From IMG/VR virus record IMGVR_UViG_3300017791_000355, positions 32,001 to 96,000 of that record: a stretch of DNA of 64,000 nt. One strand, written 5' to 3'. How positions within the stretch are numbered: the stretch's first letter is position 1; each line of letters starts with the position of its first letter. Below, piece by piece: positions 3,039 to 64,000 of the stretch. This DNA comes from a virus. Taxonomy: Duplodnaviria; Caudoviricetes. The translations under genes were made by a program, and so were the position numbers. The notes under the pieces were generated by a model, which did no database searches, was not told the DNA's origin, and was given only the letters and a program-made list of their open reading frames with translations.

Positions 3039-4379
3039 ATGAAGATGTTCAAGTTGTCACTGCTCATGGTCTGCGTACTTGCTTGGCCCGTCGCTGCCGC
3101 AACACCAGACAGCGTTGGAAACAACGACAAACTCGCCAGCGGCTACGATGCAACGTGCATCATCGAGGGTACGACGCTCTATTGCTGGGGCCCGAACGCG
3201 ATGGGAGCCGTCGGTGACGGGACCACGACTGCGAGGTCGAACGCGAATCAGTATCAGCACAGTGGTTCGTGGAAGTCGGTCTCCAGTAACTGGGGACACA
3301 CGTGCGCGATCAACTCGAGCGACGAACTGTATTGCTGGGGCAAGAACGATAACGGGCAGCTCGGGCAGGGCGACTTGACCGATCGTAGCTCGCCTACCCG
3401 CGTCGGAACCGCCACCTACTATCGCGTCGCGAACGGCTCGCAACACACGTGCGCGATCCGCAAGTCACCGAACGCGAATACCGACGGCAACGGTAACTCC
3501 GACATGTATTGCTTCGGTGACAATGCATACGGTCAGGTTGGCGACGGGACGACGACCGACCGCACCACCCCGACTCTCGCCAGTGTCAAGTCGGTCTTCG
3601 TGGCCGCCGGGTGGGGGCACACGTGCATCATCACGGCGACGTCCGGAACTACTCGCATCCTCTCTTGCGTCGGACAAAACAACTACGGTCAGCTCGGGGA
3701 CAACACGACGACGAATAATTCGGCGTGGCAGGCGCCTCGAAAGTCGGATGGCACCGCCATCACGATGAACTACGTCAGCAAGCTCGCCGCCAACACCTAT
3801 CAGACGTGCGTGATTGGCGGACTGACTTCGACGAACTCCGAACTTCGCTGCTGGGGCAACAACAGTCAGAGCGCGGTCGGGGATCCGTCGGCGTCGTTCG
3901 TGAAGTACGTCCCGACGTCAGCGAAGTGCATGCCGTCAGCGGCGCACTTCGGACGCACCTCGATTGGCTGGAACATCTGCAGTGGCTTCACTGAGGTATC
4001 TGTCGGGTACCAGCACGTCGTGTCGATCTGGGACGCCACGTGGACGCAGCAGAATCCATTCTACGCGTACCACGAGGGACTGCACGTCGTAGGCATGGGC
4101 TGGGGTGCCTTCGATCAGTTTGCCCAGTACGGTAGCGGGTCCGGTTTCAACTCGACGTCAAACTTGGTCGTGTTCGATGAGCCTGACGGCTCCTGTTACA
4201 ACGATAACTGCAGCGGTGTCGCTGGTTACACGGGATATGCGCTCGGTGTCGCGGGCGGGTGGTACCGGTCCTTCGGTTACTACGCCGTGCATGCCTTCCG
4301 CGAGTACGGTACCGACACTTCGTATCCGTCACCTCCCTGGCTTCAGTCCGTCATCGACGCTCAGGGTTGGGAGTACTGA
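3039..4379 (+). CDS. secreted RCC1/BLIP-II repeat beta-propeller protein
   Basis: Signal peptide; repeated HTCA...LYCWGxNxxGQLGDG motifs. Confidence 0.85.
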   Translation: MKMFKLSLLMVCVLAWPVAAATPDSVGNNDKLASGYDATCIIEGTTLYCWGPNAMGAVGDGTTTARSNANQYQHSGSWKSVSSNWGHTCAINSSDELYCWGKNDNGQLGQGDLTDRSSPTRVGTATYYRVANGSQHTCAIRKSPNANTDGNGNSDMYCFGDNAYGQVGDGTTTDRTTPTLASVKSVFVAAGWGHTCIITATSGTTRILSCVGQNNYGQLGDNTTTNNSAWQAPRKSDGTAITMNYVSKLAANTYQTCVIGGLTSTNSELRCWGNNSQSAVGDPSASFVKYVPTSAKCMPSAAHFGRTSIGWNICSGFTEVSVGYQHVVSIWDATWTQQNPFYAYHEGLHVVGMGWGAFDQFAQYGSGSGFNSTSNLVVFDEPDGSCYNDNCSGVAGYTGYALGVAGGWYRSFGYYAVHAFREYGTDTSYPSPPWLQSVIDAQGWEY

Positions 4380-4875: not shown

Positions 4876-5035
4876 GCACTCATCCTAGACCCTGCCTCCG
4901 ACGAAGATCAAGCTCGAACGCGTTCCCTGGACGAACCGACGAACGTCGGCTAAACAAGAGCATCGTGTTCTCCATCTCATCCCAGTCGAGTACGTCGCGC
5001 TCCGCGAGCTCCCGCTCGTCGGCGCGCTAACTCCT

Positions 5036-5123
5036 GGAGCATGAGGTGGGCGGGTGCCCACACCCGTCTCGAAAACGGGCCCACGGCCGAGAGGTCGTGC
5101 GGGTTCGAGTCCTGCTTGCTCCG
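5036..5123 (+). tRNA. tRNA-Ser(CGA), 8/4-compatible with Sec-like 6-bp D stem
   Basis: GGAGCATG/CTTGCTCC, D stem GTGGGC-GGGT-GCCCAC, CCCGT-CTCGAAA-ACGGG, long variable arm CACGGCC-GAGA-GGTCGTG, G73. Confidence 0.8.
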
Positions 5124-5921: not shown

Positions 5922-5953
5922 TGCAAGTATCGTGCCAGGGGCGTACCCTGGAC
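5922..5953. promoter_or_regulatory. reverse sigma54 consensus overlapping a CCAGG-N7-CCTGGAC palindrome, upstream of the head operon
   Basis: Minus strand TGGCACG-ATAC-TTGCA (5937-5922); palindrome 5933-5953 ends 1 nt before the GTG at 5955. Confidence 0.6.
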
Positions 5954-5954
5954 G

Positions 5955-7394
5955 GTGCTTCTCGACGTACATCACGATAGACTCCCCGCACTTGCGGCCC
6001 CGCTGGTCGCGCGCGTATTCCAGGGACGTGCCGCTCGCGTTCACAGTCGCGGGGACGGTCTTCGGTATCGCCTGCGAGACGGCTCCTATCGTGAGGAGTT
6101 GCGCGATCAGGCCGAGCTCGAGCGCGTGGTTCGCCAATTGGTGGGCAAGCCGGTCTGCTTGCTGCACCCGGACTCGTCCGAGCAGAATCACCGCGGAGTA
6201 ATCGCTGACGGGGCGACGGCCGACATCATTGGCCGAATCGTCGCGGCCCGACTGGTCGACGGCTACGCCGTCGTCGACATCGCCGTCACCGCGAGTCACG
6301 GGATCGACGCCGTTGAACGAGGCATCCGCGAGCTCTCGCTAACCTATCGCTGCGACCTCGACGACGCCGGTTATCAGCGAAACACCGAGGTCGACCACCT
6401 CGCGGTCCTGCCCCGCGGCCGATGCGGCGCTGGTTGCGCGGTTCGGGCGGACTGCGACGGGGCCGAGGACTGCGGTTGCGAGATCAACACCGACGGAAAC
6501 CTCAGCGCGCGCGAGCGGCGCTCCCTGGACGACTCCTTCGCCGTTCCAGAGAACGAGGGTCTACCGATCCACGATCAGGAGCATCCCGCTGGAGTCCAGG
6601 GATGTGCGTGCAAGGGTCTTGCCAAGTCCCTGGACGTCGGTCAATCTGCAATTCACATGCCAACGGCATCGGACACGGACAAGGACAAGGCGCCCATGGA
6701 CGAACTCCAGAGGAAGCTCGCCGAGGCTCAGGCCGAGGCCAACGCGCAGAAGGTTCGCGCTGACCAGGCCGAGGCGGCCCGTGACGCAGCTCGGCTCGAG
6801 GCTCTCGAGAATCGCTCCGAGGCGAAGACTGCCGAGACCGAGCGCACTCGTGCGGACCAGGCCGAACAGGGTCTGAAGGTCGCGAACGAGCAGATCAAGA
6901 CTCTCACCGCTCAGTTCGAGACCCAGAAGACCCGCGCCGACGAGGCCGAGCGTCTTCGCGCCGACGAGGCCGCCAGTGTCGACGCTCGCATCGATGCAGC
7001 TGTCGACGTGAAGGTCGCACTGATCGCCGAGGCAGCACCGATCATCGGCAAGAACGAGAAGGGCGAGGCCGTCGATCTCTCGAAGATGAGTGATCGCGCG
7101 ATCAAGTGCGCGGTCGTTCTGCGCGTCGACGGTGTCGACCTCGAGACCCTCGACCCGAAGCCCAGTGCCGACTTTGTGTCCGGCGCCTACGCAGGTGCTG
7201 TCAAGCGCCACGCTCGCGTCGCGTCCTCGCGCGCGGCAGTCGAGAAGGACGTCGCCGTCATGATCGACTCGTCCAAGGTCGAGTCGAAGGGTGACGAGGT
7301 CACGGGTTCGGAAGCCGAGAAGCGCGGCACCGACAAGATTCGCAACAGCCTGAGCTCGGCGTGGAAGAAGCCCGCGCAGAAGGACAAGGAGTAG
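5955..7394 (+). CDS. capsid maturation protease/scaffold (DUF2213-like)
   Basis: ELSLTYRC, DHLAVLPRGRCG motifs; coiled-coil scaffold with RAD repeats; position before capsid genes. Confidence 0.85.
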   Translation: MLLDVHHDRLPALAAPLVARVFQGRAARVHSRGDGLRYRLRDGSYREELRDQAELERVVRQLVGKPVCLLHPDSSEQNHRGVIADGATADIIGRIVAARLVDGYAVVDIAVTASHGIDAVERGIRELSLTYRCDLDDAGYQRNTEVDHLAVLPRGRCGAGCAVRADCDGAEDCGCEINTDGNLSARERRSLDDSFAVPENEGLPIHDQEHPAGVQGCACKGLAKSLDVGQSAIHMPTASDTDKDKAPMDELQRKLAEAQAEANAQKVRADQAEAARDAARLEALENRSEAKTAETERTRADQAEQGLKVANEQIKTLTAQFETQKTRADEAERLRADEAASVDARIDAAVDVKVALIAEAAPIIGKNEKGEAVDLSKMSDRAIKCAVVLRVDGVDLETLDPKPSADFVSGAYAGAVKRHARVASSRAAVEKDVAVMIDSSKVESKGDEVTGSEAEKRGTDKIRNSLSSAWKKPAQKDKE

Positions 7395-14117: not shown

Positions 14118-14167
14118 TGCAAGGTTCGGGCCAAGTCTGCTAGGCTGTCCAGGATTCCTTCCTGGAG
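14118..14167. promoter_or_regulatory. reverse sigma54-like site plus GTCCAGG-N7-CCTGGAG palindrome upstream of the sheath
   Basis: Minus TGGCCCG-AACC-TTGCA (14133-14118); palindrome 14147-14167. Confidence 0.55.
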
Positions 14168-20764: not shown

Positions 20765-20833
20765 GGCCAGGGGACAGCCCTGGACAGTGTCGGCACGACT
20801 CGTCCAGCGAGGTATCCTGCAACGACCGTGCCA
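20765..20833. promoter_or_regulatory. palindrome plus reverse sigma54 consensus at the spike gene start
   Basis: GGCCAGG-N7-CCTGGAC 20765-20785; minus TGGCACG-GTCG-TTGCA 20833-20818. Confidence 0.55.
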
Positions 20834-35011: not shown

Positions 35012-38000
35012 ATACTTCCTGCCCTCAAGCGCGGACGATCGGCGAAGTCTGCGGCTGCGAGACGTGCGTCCTGACTCGCCTGATGGCGACGTCGCCGACG
35101 CGGCCGATGGACCCGGCGCAGCTGAGCGCACTCGTCGCGCAATCCCGTACGCGGGAGGACGCGAAGTGATGTCCTCGCTGTGGGTCGTTATTGCCGTCGT
35201 CGGCTACGCCCTCATGACGAGCGTCGCGCTCGCCGTCGTTCGAAGGGTGAAAGGTGTGATCGACGAGGAGGTCACGGTACTCAAGGCGCTCGCGGTGGTC
35301 TGGCCACTAGGTATCGTCATCTTCACGGTGTTCGGGTTGCTCATGCTGCTTGGTCTGTTCGGACAGTGGGTGACGCCCGCGTTTCTAGGTGTCGGCGAGT
35401 GCATCGTCTCGATACCGGGCCGCGTCTACCGCTTCGTCTTGCGTGTCGATCGCAGAGGGCATCCTCGACGAGGTGGTTCGGAGGACGGGGTGTGTGTCGT
35501 GACCTGGTCCTGCTCCCACTGCGGCGACCTCCACCCCGGCCAGGCCCCGAAGGCCGCGTACTTCGCCGGTCATCCCTTCTGCTCCGCGAACTGCGTCGAG
35601 TACTACATGGCGACTCACCCGACTCTGTCACGCGATATCGGGTGGATCAGTCGAACTGATCTCGTGGTCCGCGCAGTCGAGGTCGGGGCACTCAAACCCA
35701 GAACAAGAGGTGAGTCATGATCCGCCGCACGCTCATCACCATGCACAGGAACGCCCTGCGCCTCTTCGCGCACCGTTGGTTCCTCATCGGCTTCGAGATA
35801 TCGGGGGCCGGGTTCCACGGCGAGACCTTCCCAGTGTCGAGCCACAAGGGCGCTCGGGCACTGGTGACGGCGTACTTCAATCGGGTCTGGGACTCCAAGA
35901 CCTCACATCGCTCAGAACAACTGGAACGAAAGGCAGCGTGATGAAGTCCGAGATCGATCGAAAGCACCGCACGACGGATTATGGAAAGGTGGCAGGAGTC
36001 CTCGCTATGGGTTGCACCGTCGCAGCGTTCACCCTGATCGGGATCATGCACTGCTTCGTCGAGGAGCCCGCTCTCGAGCAGAAGCTCCAGCGAGCGCAGT
36101 CCGAGCTTCGGAAGAGCGACCTCGACCTGATCCAGGTCCGCAGCGAGCTCTCGAGGATGCGCGCCCAGCCCGAGTCCGTCTCGACGATGACGGTCCGCGC
36201 GACCGAGATGGCCGGCACCATGATGATGTGCGACGGCGAGCCAGGCGCGGTTCACTGCGCGAAGTACGGCGCAGCGTGGGCGAACTACGAGGGTCCGATC
36301 GTGACCTGCCTTCGCGGGCAGTGCAGGCTGGTGCGCGAGTGACGCCTGAGATCGTGGAGCGCGTGACGCGACTCGCGATGAAGGCGAAGGTCAAGGATCG
36401 CCATCAGTGTGCTCTCGCGAGGGTGCGCGAAAGTCTCGGTCGCGAGCACTGGAGAAAGAGTATGCAGGTGATCGGCATCCACGTCGGACTGACGCAAGTG
36501 GAGTCGTACGGAGTCATGGACGGGTGGGACCACACCGCCACCCAGCACTGTCACTTCCGTTCGATGGTAGATCGGCCAGGATACGCCGAGGGTTACGAAC
36601 TCGGCTGCGCGCTCTACGAGACGCTTGTGGAGTGGCGATGACTCTACCTCGATGCTCCTGCGGTCGCGTTCGAGGCTTCTGCGTCGTCCACCGCGGTCCG
36701 GATCCAGAGTGGCCAGAGTTCCAGGTCCTGTCGGTCGCGCGGGTCTGGGTAGTGATGTGCCTCGCGATCGCCCTCGCGGTGGTCGGAGCGAGGGTGTTGT
36801 GAGTCAGGGTGACGACATCATCTACGGCGTCAGTGTGATCGTCAACGATACCGACACCGGCGAGTTGGACGTCTACGCGTACAAAAACGGCGTCCGCTAC
36901 ACGGAGACGATTCCGCAGACCTCGTCCGACGACGAAGTTCAAGCTGCCATGCGAAGGGTCGCCAACACCGTTCTTGTGGCACCTGCGCGGACGTCGTTCG
37001 ACCGCGTGAAGGACGCGCTGAACAAGATCTACGGTTACGTCGACGACGCGGCCGTGCACGCGGTGATCGCGGCGTACGTGGGATGAGGCCTTCGTGAGTG
37101 AATGGGACTACGAATACGAGGATGAGATGAATGAACTAGCAGCCATCGATACCCTGTCGCGCATCGCGCTCGAGTGGATCGAGCTCGGGGTCCCGGACGA
37201 GGACGCGACCAACGCGAAGGGCACAGTCAACGACCTGCGCGTCGCGCACGGACTCGAGGCGCTCGAGGTCGGGCTCGGCCTCGGCGAGGTCGACGTCTGC
37301 ATGGGTTGCTCGAGCGACCGAGTCGCGGGTCAGTGCCCGAACGCGAAGTGCACGTGGGGCAAGGAAGGCCCTCGACGCGTCGCACGAAGTTACTGTCAGT
37401 ACAGTGTTCCGTTTGGACCGGGCACGCAGAAGTGCGCATGTCACGGGGTAGCGACGGGGGTCCTCGAGGTCGAGGACGAGGACCCCCGACGCGCCGCACT
37501 CAAGCGCGGGCTTCGCCAGTGCACGCGGATAGAACTCGAGCGCCTCCTTCAGTGGATCGAGGACGGCCATCCTATCCTCCTGGACCGGGACGAGGACGGC
37601 GCCGCGAACTACTCGGAGTCGTGGCACGAGTACTGCCCGCTCGCGATCGCGAGGGACCTGCCGTTCCTGTTCGAGCACTACGACGAGGGACCGTCCGATG
37701 AGCGTGTGACGGAGATGCTGAAGCGCGCCGGGCTCGAGATCTTCAACACCCGCGGCATCTCGGGCGAGTTCTACATGACAGACCGCCGACGCGACCTCGA
37801 GATCGCGGTGCGCGAGGTCCTCGAGGAGAAGAGCGCGTGAGCGACCACAAGCGAGAGAATCGTCCGCGGGAGATCGACGAGTGGTACTGCGCCGAGGAGG
37901 GCTGCGAGTTCAACGGGAAGCTCGCACAGCAGGGCGTCTGTTACAGCGCGGATCGTCAATACCAGAACTGGGAGAAGCTGTACGAGGCCTCGAAGGAACA

Positions 38001-60300: not shown

Positions 60301-61970
60301 GCCGCCGCCCCCTCGACGATCCACTCGCCAGGCTGGAGCACGTAGTCGATCGGCACCTGGACGTGCTCGACGCGAGGACCGCGGGCGACGAAGCACTCGC
60401 GAAGCGACGGGATGTACTGGCCGGTCTCACGGTCGACGAAGCCTGGCGCCCTCGGAAAGAGCTGCACGTAGCCTCTGTACGAGACGCGTCCGTTCTCGAG
60501 GAGGACGTTCGACTTCAGGAAGATTCCGACGTCGCGCCACTTCTCGGGAACGCCGAGGCTCGTCACGCACGTCTCAGCGTGCGGGAACTTCTTCGTGCCG
60601 TGCTCGCCGCAGTGCACACACACGCGCCCGGTACGGAGGTACGGCACGTAGTCCTTGAGAACCTTGCCGTCTTCCCCGAAGTCACCGTACGACATCAGGA
60701 ACTCGTCGCCACTCTCGTGGCACGCGTCGGCGCCGAACGAGACGCCACCGCCCTCGGTCCGCGGCACGTCCTTCGTGAGGAGTAGCCCGGTCCCGTCGCA
60801 CGTGACCTCGCCTTCCGGTCCCTCGCAACCCTTGAGCTTCACGTTGTGATGAAGGACTCGCCCCGCGTTCTCGCACGTCGCGCAGGTCGCCACGGTGGGC
60901 TCCTTGACCTTCCCACCCGCCTTCCACGGCTGACACCGGCCCTTGCAGTCCGGGCAGCGCAGCGTGGGCTGCTCATGGTGGGGGACCTTCCCCTCGCCGG
61001 CGCAGTGAGGGCAAGGCTCGGTCGACCCGTACTCGACCGCGATCATCTTCTTCAGGATCGCCTGGCTGACTGAGCCGTCGTCCCGGATGATGCCGGCGTC
61101 GATGAACTTGCCGATTGACCCGGCACGCTTCTTCTTGAAGTACGTCTCGATGACGTCGACCTTCGACTGGTCGACCCACAGGCCGTGCGCGTCGCCGAGC
61201 GCGAGGCAGATCGCGGAGTAGGTCTGCGTCGCGACCTCGTGGAGATTCAGGTGCGGACGGCGGACGAGGCACTGGGAGGAGAAGCGCGTCGAGCCGCAGT
61301 CGAGGCACGCGCCCGCGTCGGACCAGTTGTGGCTCGAGGAGACCTTGGGTAGGACCCCGATCTGGGCGAGCGTGACCTCGTGGGTGTTCTTGCCGTCGTC
61401 GACGGGGTAGTCGCGCGCGGCCTGCGGGAGCTTCTCGAGCGGCCAGTCGTCGAACTCGCCGTAGCGCAGCTTATACTCATCGTTCGACTTCGCGTCCTGT
61501 CGGCCGAGCACGAGGTCCACGACCATGGACAACGAGTACGAGCCGGGCTTGCCGGTCTCGGGATTCTTCAGCGGTCCGCCGGTGCGCGGATCGCGGCCGA
61601 GGGTGCCCTCCGCGATCGCGCAGAGGACTTGGGTGACCAGGGGATCGAACACGCGGCCCTGCTCGAGCAGCGCGAAGACGTGCGGCCAGATGTCGATCCC
61701 GCGTCGCGCGAACTCGTCGGCGATCACCAAGACGTCGAACGCGAGGTTCGCGTTGTTGAGGATCGCGCTCGGGTCCTCGAGGACCTGCGCGAAGAGCTCG
61801 AGCACGTCGTACTTCGAGAGCAGGGCCCCGACGATGTTCCCCTGGGGATCGAGCCACCCGGCCGAGCCGAGGACGAGCTTGGGGACGGGGACGCCCTTCT
61901 TGATGGCCCAGGTCTCGGTGTCGATCGAGACGGCGGTCTGGGCGAAGGTCTGGAGGCGAGCGAGCCGCAC
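60297..61970 (-). CDS. family A DNA polymerase, N-terminal part (3'-5' exonuclease and thumb) with Zn-finger insertions
   Basis: DTET, NLAFD, YPVDD exonuclease motifs; NGRVS...LRECFVAR; CxxCxGxG repeats. Confidence 0.85.
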   Translation of the reverse strand: MRLARLQTFAQTAVSIDTETWAIKKGVPVPKLVLGSAGWLDPQGNIVGALLSKYDVLELFAQVLEDPSAILNNANLAFDVLVIADEFARRGIDIWPHVFALLEQGRVFDPLVTQVLCAIAEGTLGRDPRTGGPLKNPETGKPGSYSLSMVVDLVLGRQDAKSNDEYKLRYGEFDDWPLEKLPQAARDYPVDDGKNTHEVTLAQIGVLPKVSSSHNWSDAGACLDCGSTRFSSQCLVRRPHLNLHEVATQTYSAICLALGDAHGLWVDQSKVDVIETYFKKKRAGSIGKFIDAGIIRDDGSVSQAILKKMIAVEYGSTEPCPHCAGEGKVPHHEQPTLRCPDCKGRCQPWKAGGKVKEPTVATCATCENAGRVLHHNVKLKGCEGPEGEVTCDGTGLLLTKDVPRTEGGGVSFGADACHESGDEFLMSYGDFGEDGKVLKDYVPYLRTGRVCVHCGEHGTKKFPHAETCVTSLGVPEKWRDVGIFLKSNVLLENGRVSYRGYVQLFPRAPGFVDRETGQYIPSLRECFVARGPRVEHVQVPIDYVLQPGEWIVEGAAA

Positions 61971-61972
61971 TG

Positions 61973-62446
61973 TCCAGGAAGAACGCCTGGACCGGGGTCG
62001 GAGCTTCCGTCAGATCTCCGGGGTCGGCGCGATTTCTCGGACGTGCTCGGGGATCATGCGAAGACCCTCCTCGAGCGAATCGACGAAGGACCACGACCCG
62101 TGTCCCTCGCACGAGCACCCACCATACTCGGCGTGGATGATTCGTCCATCTGGCAGAACCGCGACCATGTTCGCGTGGTGGTGACCCCAGCCCTCGGAGT
62201 CGTCGTAGTGCTCGTAGAGCAGCGCGTAGCCGCCGTCGAGGGCGGTCTGGAGCGCCTGTTGGGAGCCGCCCAAGTCATTCGTGATGCATCCGTCGGCGCA
62301 GGTCCGGTATTCCTGGGGCATCGCAGTCACCTCGAGCACGAGCTCGCGGACGTCGCGGCCTTCCTTGAGGGCGTCCAGGAGCACGGAGATGAGGTCGTCG
62401 CGCGTCATCCAGGATAGAACGCCTGGACCTGGGTCGGAGCTTCCGT
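61973..62446. repeat. 38/39-bp direct repeat (61973-62010 and 62408-62446) flanking one gene
   Basis: TCCAGGA(T)AGAACGCCTGGACC(G/T)GGGTCGGAGCTTCCGT; one indel, one mismatch. Confidence 0.9.
62010..62408 (-). CDS. hypothetical protein
   Basis: ATG at 62408; YGGCSC motif. Confidence 0.6.
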   Translation of the reverse strand: MTRDDLISVLLDALKEGRDVRELVLEVTAMPQEYRTCADGCITNDLGGSQQALQTALDGGYALLYEHYDDSEGWGHHHANMVAVLPDGRIIHAEYGGCSCEGHGSWSFVDSLEEGLRMIPEHVREIAPTPEI

Positions 62447-62454
62447 TCAAATAT

Positions 62455-62560
62455 TGCTCACAAGAGCCCTTGTCCTACCTTGCCATGCCTAACCCGGCCT
62501 TTGCCCAACTTGTCGTGCCACGCCGTGTCACGCCTAGCCTGACCCGGCCCTTGCCCAACC
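62455..62560 (-). ncRNA. (GGY-NN)n repeat unit B with 3' hairpin, candidate guide RNA
   Basis: About 18 GGY/GAC triplets at mostly 5-nt spacing, ending GAC-AA-GG-GCTC-TTGT-GAGC. Confidence 0.7.
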
Positions 62561-62576
62561 AATTCAAATCAGAGAA

Positions 62577-62653
62577 TGCGCACAAGCGCCCTTGTCGTGC
62601 CACGCTCCGCCGCGCCGTGCCACGCCGTGCCACGCCTGGCCTGGCCGAGCCAA
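62577..62653 (-). ncRNA. (GGY-NN)n repeat unit A with 3' hairpin, candidate guide RNA
   Basis: 12 triplets in perfect 5-nt register, ending GAC-AA-GG-GCGC-TTGT-GCGC. Confidence 0.75.
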
Positions 62654-62657
62654 AACT

Positions 62658-63170
62658 CTACTTACGTGACGCAGCCACGGGCGTCGAACGCTCACGTGGT
62701 CGAGGCTCTGGAATCTTGCGCCGTAGTTCACGATTCACGGCAGACACGACGCGTCCTTGGACTTCGAGGTCGCGATCGTGCGCGACGACTTCATCGGACG
62801 CGAGTTCAGACCGTGGAACGTCCTGCTTGATGGCGAGCGCTCGACGGAGCTTCCGTCGACCGTTACGAGATGTCTTGGTGCTGTAGGCGCTGGCGCCGGA
62901 CGCAGTCAAGAGCATCACCCCGACGTCCGAGTCGATCTTGACGGCGACGTGCATTGGAGGGTCGCGTCTTAACCACTCGGCTTCGACGAGTCCCTTGAGT
63001 TGAAGGCACCTGGTGCTGTACTCAGGCGTGTCACGCGTGACTCGGAACATGCGTTCGATCTCGTGAACCGCGATATGATCACCTCGCTCGAGTCGAGCGA
63101 CCCGCTGAGCAGGAGTGATCTCCTCTTCGGTCTCAGGCGTGCTCTCGACGGTCTGCAACTCGAGATTCAT
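62658..63170 (-). CDS. unknown accessory protein coupled to the RAMP-like gene
   Basis: ATGA overlap with the RAMP-like gene stop; 170 aa, basic C-terminal half. Confidence 0.75.
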   Translation of the reverse strand: MNLELQTVESTPETEEEITPAQRVARLERGDHIAVHEIERMFRVTRDTPEYSTRCLQLKGLVEAEWLRRDPPMHVAVKIDSDVGVMLLTASGASAYSTKTSRNGRRKLRRALAIKQDVPRSELASDEVVAHDRDLEVQGRVVSAVNRELRRKIPEPRPRERSTPVAASRK

Positions 63171-63730
63171 CCGATCACCTCGAACCGACCGAACTTCGGT
63201 CGCCAGTCGCCGACCCCGGTAATGCCGGAAGTCTCGACGATGTCGACGAGCTGATCGTCGGACTTGATGATGGAAGGATCCCACTGCACGTCGAACGTGC
63301 ACTCCCACGATGGAAAGATCGGTCGCGCGCGAATGACGCGGTTTTGCTTCACCTTGACCCCAGCAAGCTTGAGGTAGTTTCCGCTATCCCAGAGTCCTTC
63401 GACGGTCTTGGGACCCGGATACTGGAGGGCCCAATCACCCTCGATGATGATCCCACCCTTGACTTGCTTGCCCAGCGTGAGCTTCCTGGCTCCCTCTTGA
63501 AGGGCTCCCTCGAGGACCTCACCGGGTAAGCAAGGCGCGCCCTTGTTGTTCACGTAGAGTCCGCCATTCCACTCGCACCGGCGAATCTCCAGCAGATCGG
63601 CGTCAGTCTTCTTCTTCTTATCGGTCAACTTCTTGAGCGCTCGCGCCATCTCATTCAGAGGGTCGGCGAGTTGCCCGTTGTGCATGATGAGAGGGGTGAG
63701 GCCGCGAATCGTGAACGTGGTGGTCTTCAT
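63167..63730 (-). CDS. stand-alone Cas7/RAMP-like RNA-binding protein
   Basis: TFTIRGLTPLIMH, PCLPGEVLEGAL, RARPIF, terminal Gly-rich loop GVGDWRPKFGRFEV. Confidence 0.8.
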   Translation of the reverse strand: MKTTTFTIRGLTPLIMHNGQLADPLNEMARALKKLTDKKKKTDADLLEIRRCEWNGGLYVNNKGAPCLPGEVLEGALQEGARKLTLGKQVKGGIIIEGDWALQYPGPKTVEGLWDSGNYLKLAGVKVKQNRVIRARPIFPSWECTFDVQWDPSIIKSDDQLVDIVETSGITGVGDWRPKFGRFEVIG

Positions 63731-63829
63731 GTAAGCCTTGGAGCGTTGACGTCTTGGCGTGATTGCCGTTGTCGTGCTCGCAAGAAGGGAACTCCCTGGA
63801 CAATGCTCCGCTTTCAAAAATCGACCCAA

Positions 63830-63896
63830 TGCTCACAAGAGCCCATGTCTTGTCCGGACCCGCCACGCCTAGCGACGTCTCGCCTAGGCCTGCCGT
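63830..63896 (-). ncRNA. degenerate (GGY-NN)n unit C with the same 3' hairpin
   Basis: 10 pentamers in register, ending GAC-AT-GG-GCTC-TTGT-GAGC. Confidence 0.6.
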
Positions 63897-64000
63897 AAAT
63901 TCGCGTAGTGCGTCAGGATCTCGGCGTGACAGCGCAACGGCGAGCACCAACACGCGAGGACCTTCCCCCGGAGCTCGGGCAGCCGAGCCATCAAATCTGC
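63884..64000 (-). CDS. DUF4326-like protein (3' end, partial)
   Basis: ELRGKVLACWCSPLRCHAEIL. Confidence 0.75.
   Translation of the reverse strand, partial: ADLMARLPELRGKVLACWCSPLRCHAEILTHYANLRQA

Follow-up and report, generated by a model that had tools for sequence, protein, structure and literature searches.

A predicted VIPR guide RNA gene of thirteen pentamers in a large tRNA-rich phage, with a candidate target in a phage tail-module gene

The stretch of DNA considered here, hereafter the window, is 64,000 nucleotides long and corresponds to bases 32001-96000 of a 135,661-base viral record. The phage carries some 30 tRNAs and has a G+C content of about 63% around the locus of interest, where a two-gene vipr-vap operon is accompanied by one repeat-bearing unit upstream (unit C) and two downstream (units A and B). 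The names vipr, vap and vrRNA are those of the system to which we assign the locus below, and its features are the following.

62456..62563, minus strand: predicted vrRNA B, a composite of two partly duplicated, register-slipped tracts with one tail hairpin (62467-62456); read directly and by the tail motif
62578..62589, minus strand: 3' tail of predicted vrRNA A, a 4-bp hairpin with a UUGU tetraloop; from the covarying third pair and the centroid fold
62590..62654, minus strand: repeat tract of predicted vrRNA A, 13 Y-N-N-G-G pentamers with NN as the proposed guide code; read directly, with pattern enrichment and the repeat type in 82 of 88 related loci
62658..63170, minus strand: accessory gene vap (P0002), 170 aa, with a 4-base overlap with the vipr stop; from translation and positional homologues
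63167..63730, minus strand: vipr gene (P0001), 187 aa, predicted Cas7/RAMP fold; from AF2 model, Foldseek, VIA, BLASTP and phrog_4652
63831..63897, minus strand: predicted vrRNA C, a degenerate tract of 11 units that precedes vipr, its tail hairpin at 63842-63831; read directly and by the tail motif

The tail motif common to units A, B and C has three occurrences in the genome and no more. The genes neighbouring the operon belong to no known family in Pfam or PHROGs, Tandem Repeats Finder reports no CRISPR-like array in the 64-kb window, and a scan of 61900-64000 for sigma-70 promoters and intrinsic terminators detects none around the units. A sequence of approximately 35 bases is repeated on the minus strand at 61973-62012 and 62409-62448, directly upstream of P0003 and of the next gene, and may serve both genes as a leader or regulatory site. 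Several sites fit the sigma-54 promoter consensus well, in the form TGGCACG-N4-TTGC, which is not usual in a phage; they lie on the minus strand at 5923-5937, 6610-6624, 6648-6662, 14119-14133 and 20819-20833, and on the plus strand at 37622-37636. The large tRNA cluster of the phage also includes a selenocysteine-type tRNA according to Rfam (window 5035-5123, 53.6 bits against a threshold of 47).

From 62654 down to 62590, unit A can be read directly as 13 successive pentamers in which the register is kept throughout, and the absence of any register slip, claimed in the original prediction, is thereby confirmed on the minus strand. The first pentamer is T-T-T-G-G, and the complete dinucleotide series is TT TC CA CA GT AC GT AC GC GG GT AC AA. 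The original prediction had the register and the dinucleotides right but counted 12 units, because it left out this first pentamer, so that a further TT precedes its series. The degenerate AG and GA that it described are present, in place of GG in units 10 and 12, respectively. Five GGC triplets spaced 5 bases apart are matched 8 times, with overlap and always in unit A or B, where shuffles expect 0.02, and the six-triplet version of the pattern occurs in unit A only in the whole 135,661-base record. Tandem Repeats Finder sees at unit A a weak period-10 repeat and nothing else.

Considered as RNA, unit A is predicted to have no more structure than shuffled versions of it (z 0.36), and its centroid fold retains the hairpin at 62589-62578 alone. 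An alternative ACAAG/CTTGT pairing can be drawn at the tail, and comparison favours the 4-bp stem with its tetraloop at 62589-62578. Among 27 unique array-adjacent tails from the window's clade the third pair of the hairpin is Watson-Crick in 26 and G-U in one, with all four pair types represented; judged from these aligned tails, the hairpin of unit A covaries across the clade. Rfam, at gathering as well as loose thresholds, finds no match on the window's units or on four related loci.

The architecture resembles that of VIPR, a CRISPR-like phage silencing system first described in preprints of 2026 and found mostly in phages, whose parts are a small stand-alone RAMP protein (Vipr) with an RRM core, a glycine-rich loop and a thumb, an accessory vap predicted to interact with DNA, and vrRNAs of 9-16 Y-N-N-G-G repeats followed by a structured tail (bioRxiv 10.64898/2026.04.26.720920,.720927, 2026.10.15.759431). 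The first paper shows, from a pangenome search together with binding competition and GFP repression, that pairing with DNA is through the NN letters, one target base being skipped per unit; the skipped base is usually the codon wobble position, the natural targets are rival mobile elements, and there is no self-targeting. In the cryo-EM paper each repeat is occupied by a single protomer, and the residues in contact with G1, G2, Y3 and the target backbone are identified; the third paper, among the same preprints, shows VIPR acting between a phage and its satellite. For the VIPR of Escherichia phage SUSP1, small-RNA sequencing and co-purification have been published, and a pseudoknot is described as the tail in the clade of that phage (bioRxiv 10.64898/2026.04.26.720920,.720927, 2026.10.15.759431).

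The larger protein of the operon, P0001, has no family in Pfam and matches phrog_4652, a family of unknown function, at E 8e-49. Its AF2 model reaches pLDDT 93, and of the PDB matches listed by Foldseek the top ones are nearly all Cas7-family backbone subunits, with E values from 7.6e-6 to 1e-3 for Csm3, Cmr4, type III-D Cas7 and type VII Cas7. A wide search with VIA returns Z scores of 9.5 for Cmr4, 9.3 for Csm3, 9.0 for gRAMP and 8.4 for Cas7-11, and the fold of P0001, as modelled, is that of Cas7/RAMP proteins. By BLASTP the protein aligns end-to-end with the tested Vipr of SUSP1 (30% identity over 185 residues, E 1e-32). In this alignment P0001 keeps every contact residue named for recognition of G1, G2 and Y3 and for the target backbone: H17, K33 and E71 are the same-numbered residues of SUSP1 Vipr, and R136, D175, W176 and R177 correspond to its R138, D177, W178 and R179. 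Conservation among 35 P0001 relatives points to the same positions, H17 being nearly invariant and R136 and R177 invariant; in the C-terminal glycine-rich loop G172, R177, P178, G181 and R182 are invariant and D175, W176, K179 and F183 nearly so. Relatives are numerous: the protein collection holds 743 with E of 1e-5 or below, and phage records give 155 matches, among them Felix O1-type coliphages, mycobacteriophage LittleE, and Gordonia and Pseudomonas phages. Those in genomes are mostly from alphaproteobacterial prophages, at no more than 48% identity, with a few from Myxococcales.

The accessory protein P0002 is less easily placed. It belongs to no family in Pfam or PHROGs, a word-based homologue search gave nothing, and a comparison with SUSP1 vap1 found no significant similarity (hhalign probability 4.5%). 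Homologues of P0002 adjoin vipr in most of the 14 other loci that have a match. The model (pLDDT 88) predicts a small alpha/beta domain with a long helical hairpin, and fold searches with it returned weak winged-helix matches (Foldseek E above 0.1) as well as helical-hairpin matches.

The repeat tracts were then compared across 88 loci encoding P0001 relatives, 507 kb in total. Every related locus first inspected has a pentamer tract beside the gene pair and on the gene strand, and in the full set at least one gene-strand tract is present in 82 of the 88 loci. In total 317 arrays lie on the gene strand and 8 on the other, where shuffles give about 10; tract length peaks at 11-16 units, and the repeat logo reads Y (81%), N, N, G (94%), G (90%). 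Applied to SUSP1, the same array finder returns the four vrRNAs where they were published, one before the genes and three after them. In the actinophage relatives tRNA-like minihelices, consisting of acceptor stem and T arm, stand between the units, and in Escherichia phage wV8 a hairpin with a T-run does so, partly annotated there as direct repeats; both arrangements imply transcription and processing. ARAGORN does not recognize the tRNA-like actinophage tails as tRNAs.

Several of these related loci show peculiarities of their own. In LittleE (L007:2173-2430 and 3664-3990) and in Gordonia phage MakoManhole (L008:2917-3130) each tract is followed by a small hairpin and then by a tRNA-like minihelix; neither ARAGORN nor Rfam makes a call on these minihelices, which are probably RNase P/Z punctuation between guides. 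The direct repeats of wV8 annotated as DR_4 (L010:2259-2316 and 3652-3709) are the terminator-like tails of VIPR guide units, and gp95/gp94 of that phage are the vipr-vap pair flanked by these units. At L013:3560-3737, beside a protein 54% identical to P0001, most units have A after the GG and read NN-GG-A, not the pyrimidine. The third-base pocket excludes purines according to the cryo-EM paper and NNNGG-type variants are mentioned in the first VIPR paper (both among bioRxiv 10.64898/2026.04.26.720920,.720927, 2026.10.15.759431), and this clade may have a changed third-base pocket. A 12-unit guide of a metagenomic VIPR locus, at L082:3999-4058, matches 22 of 24 letters at L081:4206-4241, in frame and with a one-base skip, with a chance of about 0.003 over all 207 guides tested; the matched ORF, in a related phage, immediately follows that phage's VIPR locus and has a nuclease-like motif by eye.

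The homology of P0001, the contact residues that it keeps and the SUSP1-like layout lead us to file the locus as VIPR; its nearest published counterpart in architecture is type II, the type found in Escherichia phage SUSP1 and a Pseudomonas fulva prophage. It has in common with that type the two-gene vipr-vap operon, a RAMP protein of approximately 187 residues sharing the GGY-contact residues, and gene-strand guides of 9-16 Y-N-N-G-G units, of which one precedes the operon and the others follow it. It likewise has no self-target, and the candidate target described below is a rival phage gene, matched in frame with the skip on the wobble base. There are differences as well. The protein is just 30% identical to that of SUSP1, the vap lacks significant similarity to SUSP1 vap1, and the 3' tail is a 4-bp tetraloop hairpin in place of the SUSP1 clade's pseudoknot. 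Unlike the type II examples, this phage is approximately 136 kb long, carries its some 30 tRNAs and presumably has a high-G+C organism as host, and the candidate target is a tail-module gene whereas the published ones are a satellite recombinase and a lysis-lysogeny regulator.

Two better-known systems are useful for comparison. With the backbone Cas7 proteins of class 1 CRISPR (Csm3, Cmr4, Csf2), P0001 shares the protein fold (lowest Foldseek E 7.6e-6, highest VIA Z 9.5), and the VIPR filament resembles that of Cas7 on crRNA in having one protomer per RNA segment, a thumb that flips bases periodically and a structured handle that caps the guide. The VIPR period is 5 and not 6, however, and in each unit three guide bases are sequestered and two pair. 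Unlike class 1 CRISPR, the locus has no array, no adjoining Cas6, Cas5, Cas8 or Cas11 and no adaptation genes, but a two-gene operon with hard-wired guide genes. TRAP binds the trp leader of Bacillus subtilis at 11 GAG/UAG triplets, 2-3 bases apart. This too is a constant triplet with a short spacer, repeated about a dozen times and bound by one subunit each, but its spacers carry no information and vary in length, the ring protein has a different fold, and it attenuates the same transcript.

On this evidence 62654-62578 on the minus strand is almost certainly the gene for a VIPR guide RNA, and the best explanation of the whole, which we hold to be highly probable, is a vrRNA gene within a VIPR system made up of vipr, vap and units A-C, with a mechanism taken from homology and a target for unit A that we infer. 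By analogy with its relatives, unit A would be expressed and processed. As in the published homologous system, one Vipr protomer would then bind each pentamer and sequester its G-G-Y, which presents the two N bases; these would pair with two bases of the target, and the third would be flipped out. With one protomer per pentamer, and two paired bases and one flipped base for each, the thirteen units would read a DNA site of 38 bases as NNx repeats; the small 3' hairpin would cap the filament, and binding of the complex to DNA would repress transcription. The original prediction had proposed, from the letters alone, that NN may specify a target, possibly with one base skipped per unit, in which case the gap could fall on wobble positions and give resistance to synonymous escape. 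This matches the published VIPR code, and the membership of the locus was tested by fold, SUSP1 homology, GGY-contact residues and the repeat logo. The gapped code is accordingly a supported idea, and one already in print.

Other readings of the tract had been entertained. A TRAP-like array of RNA-binding sites, a G-quadruplex tract, a type III toxin-antitoxin repeat RNA and, prompted by the annotated direct repeats of wV8, the ends of a mobile two-gene cassette were considered before the fold search, as were sigma-54 promoter or enhancer words; all were then dropped. An array acting at the DNA level, either as sigma-54 enhancer or promoter elements or as iterons for the neighbouring DNA-binding protein, has some appeal given the TGGCACG inside the tract, the GG-N10-GC spacing that can be drawn over the tail and the several good sigma-54-like sites elsewhere in the phage. 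It is nevertheless very improbable: arrays are 40 times commoner on the gene strand in the 88 loci, G-G-Y recurs every 5 bases, irrespective of promoter type, in phages of E. coli, Mycobacterium, Gordonia and Pseudomonas, the units are punctuated by tRNA-like elements or terminators, and the SUSP1 homologue has its published small-RNA sequencing and co-purification. Still further from plausible, to the point of being negligible, is a functionless slippage microsatellite or chance G+C-rich periodicity. The high G+C of the genome and the weak period-10 repeat, all that Tandem Repeats Finder reports at this place, would agree with it, but the excess of GGC matches over shuffles speaks against it, as does the same architecture beside the same gene family in 82 of 88 loci. 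The letters speak against it too: as the original prediction had noted in setting the tract apart from a microsatellite, the NN positions change from unit to unit, with G-G-Y and the period retained.

If unit A is a guide as we believe, the question is what it reads. In the phage's own genome no self-target stands above shuffled guides with 0, 1 or 2 skipped bases, the best being 17/26 as in the shuffles. The statement of the original prediction that the window holds no full match by eye therefore stands, and the result agrees with the absence of self-targeting in the papers. Under the one-skip rule, five 18-letter block patterns searched in IMG/VR gave chance-level loci alone, the exact 22-letter pattern of unit A has no match in the metagenomes, and two whole records of related phages contain no unit A target. 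Myxococcota, which the original prediction had named among the genomes to search, offered nothing convincing: 401 genomes at no more than 3 mismatches gave 2 matches where 0.4-1.1 would be expected, and one of the two falls in a huge surface protein with Ig repeats. Units 1-9 match exactly and in frame the last codons of a 113-residue gene of the head-tail region at L149:1262-1287 and in seven related IMG/VR contigs; units 10-13 do not match there (18/26), that phage shares no genes with this one, and the match is treated as chance, as are those at L096 (19/26), L157 and L158. It is, however, units 1-9 that have the canonical GG scaffold. When 207 guides were compared all against all on VIPR loci totalling 0.82 Mb, no skip rule gave an excess, since a database of that size is far too small.

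One locus goes beyond these. Units 1-10, as a 20-letter seed with a one-base skip, were searched in metagenome contigs and found one locus on two contigs, with the same sequence on two more (L161, L162, L164, L165); in L162 the site occupies 1393-1430. Unit A matches it in 25 of 26 NN letters, the sole mismatch being the second letter of unit 11, and since the match is in frame every skipped base falls on the third codon position. The skip search proposed in the original prediction thus does yield, for a one-base skip, an in-frame match in a phage-type gene. The encoded peptide, FSQQVTVTAGATK, lies within a gene of 128 residues; the peptide that had been predicted from the wobble reading is encoded at this candidate target, with one position different. 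The gene family comprises 63 proteins, with relatives in the tail modules of phages of approximately 35 kb: in one (L166) the relative follows the tape measure and a Phage-tail_3 protein and precedes a Laminin_G_3 protein, and in another (L167) its place is downstream of Mu-like head genes. Within the 128-residue protein the match falls in a variable segment, more distant relatives lacking the match, and the exact target variant has been seen just on contigs below 2 kb with a G+C of 52-57%, against 63% around the VIPR locus.

How far this match should be trusted can be argued in both directions. It is possible, though on balance rather unlikely, that unit A is a real vrRNA and the 25/26 match a coincidence, its true target lying outside the collections searched or the guide being a decayed one or a decoy. 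The candidate target does rest on one independent locus, the G+C of the phage and target contigs differs, and the other seed matches of similar kind, those of L096, the L149 family, L157, L158 and the two Myxococcota included, are clearly chance. Nor does a second guide converge on the same element: units B and C give nothing above shuffled controls in the available sequence of the target phage family, and the guides of related VIPR loci nothing above shuffles. Against coincidence, 5 of the 6 letters beyond the 20-letter seed match (binomial 0.0046, given the seed), the skip falls on codon position 3, and the gene family belongs to phage tail modules, which fits the published targeting of rival phages by VIPR. 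With about seven seed loci examined, the family-wise chance of such a match is approximately 0.03, before frame and context are counted. We therefore regard the locus as a good candidate target whose match is not conclusive. Going by the letters matched and the gene that carries them, unit A is probably aimed at the 128-residue tail-module gene of a rival phage family, and we incline somewhat to the view that the guide works, and that a large, tRNA-rich phage of high G+C uses it to silence a small tail-module gene of co-infecting or resident phages of approximately 35 kb.

VIPR is a very recently recognized way of guiding DNA binding by RNA through a code of two letters in three, possibly older than CRISPR. 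To its principle this locus adds nothing, the kind of system having been published in 2026, and it shows that the code could be recovered by a reader from the sequence alone. With this locus the tested family comes to include a distant clade, 30% identical and from a high-G+C phage, and what is new in the locus is the hairpin-only tail and one candidate guide-target pair, which is concrete, testable, and outside Enterobacteria and Pseudomonas. If unit A is indeed a working guide, a minimal 12-base hairpin can substitute for the published pseudoknot as its 3' cap. If it silences the tail-module gene, VIPR would also be used against the structural genes of unrelated phages, beyond satellites and lysogeny regulators.
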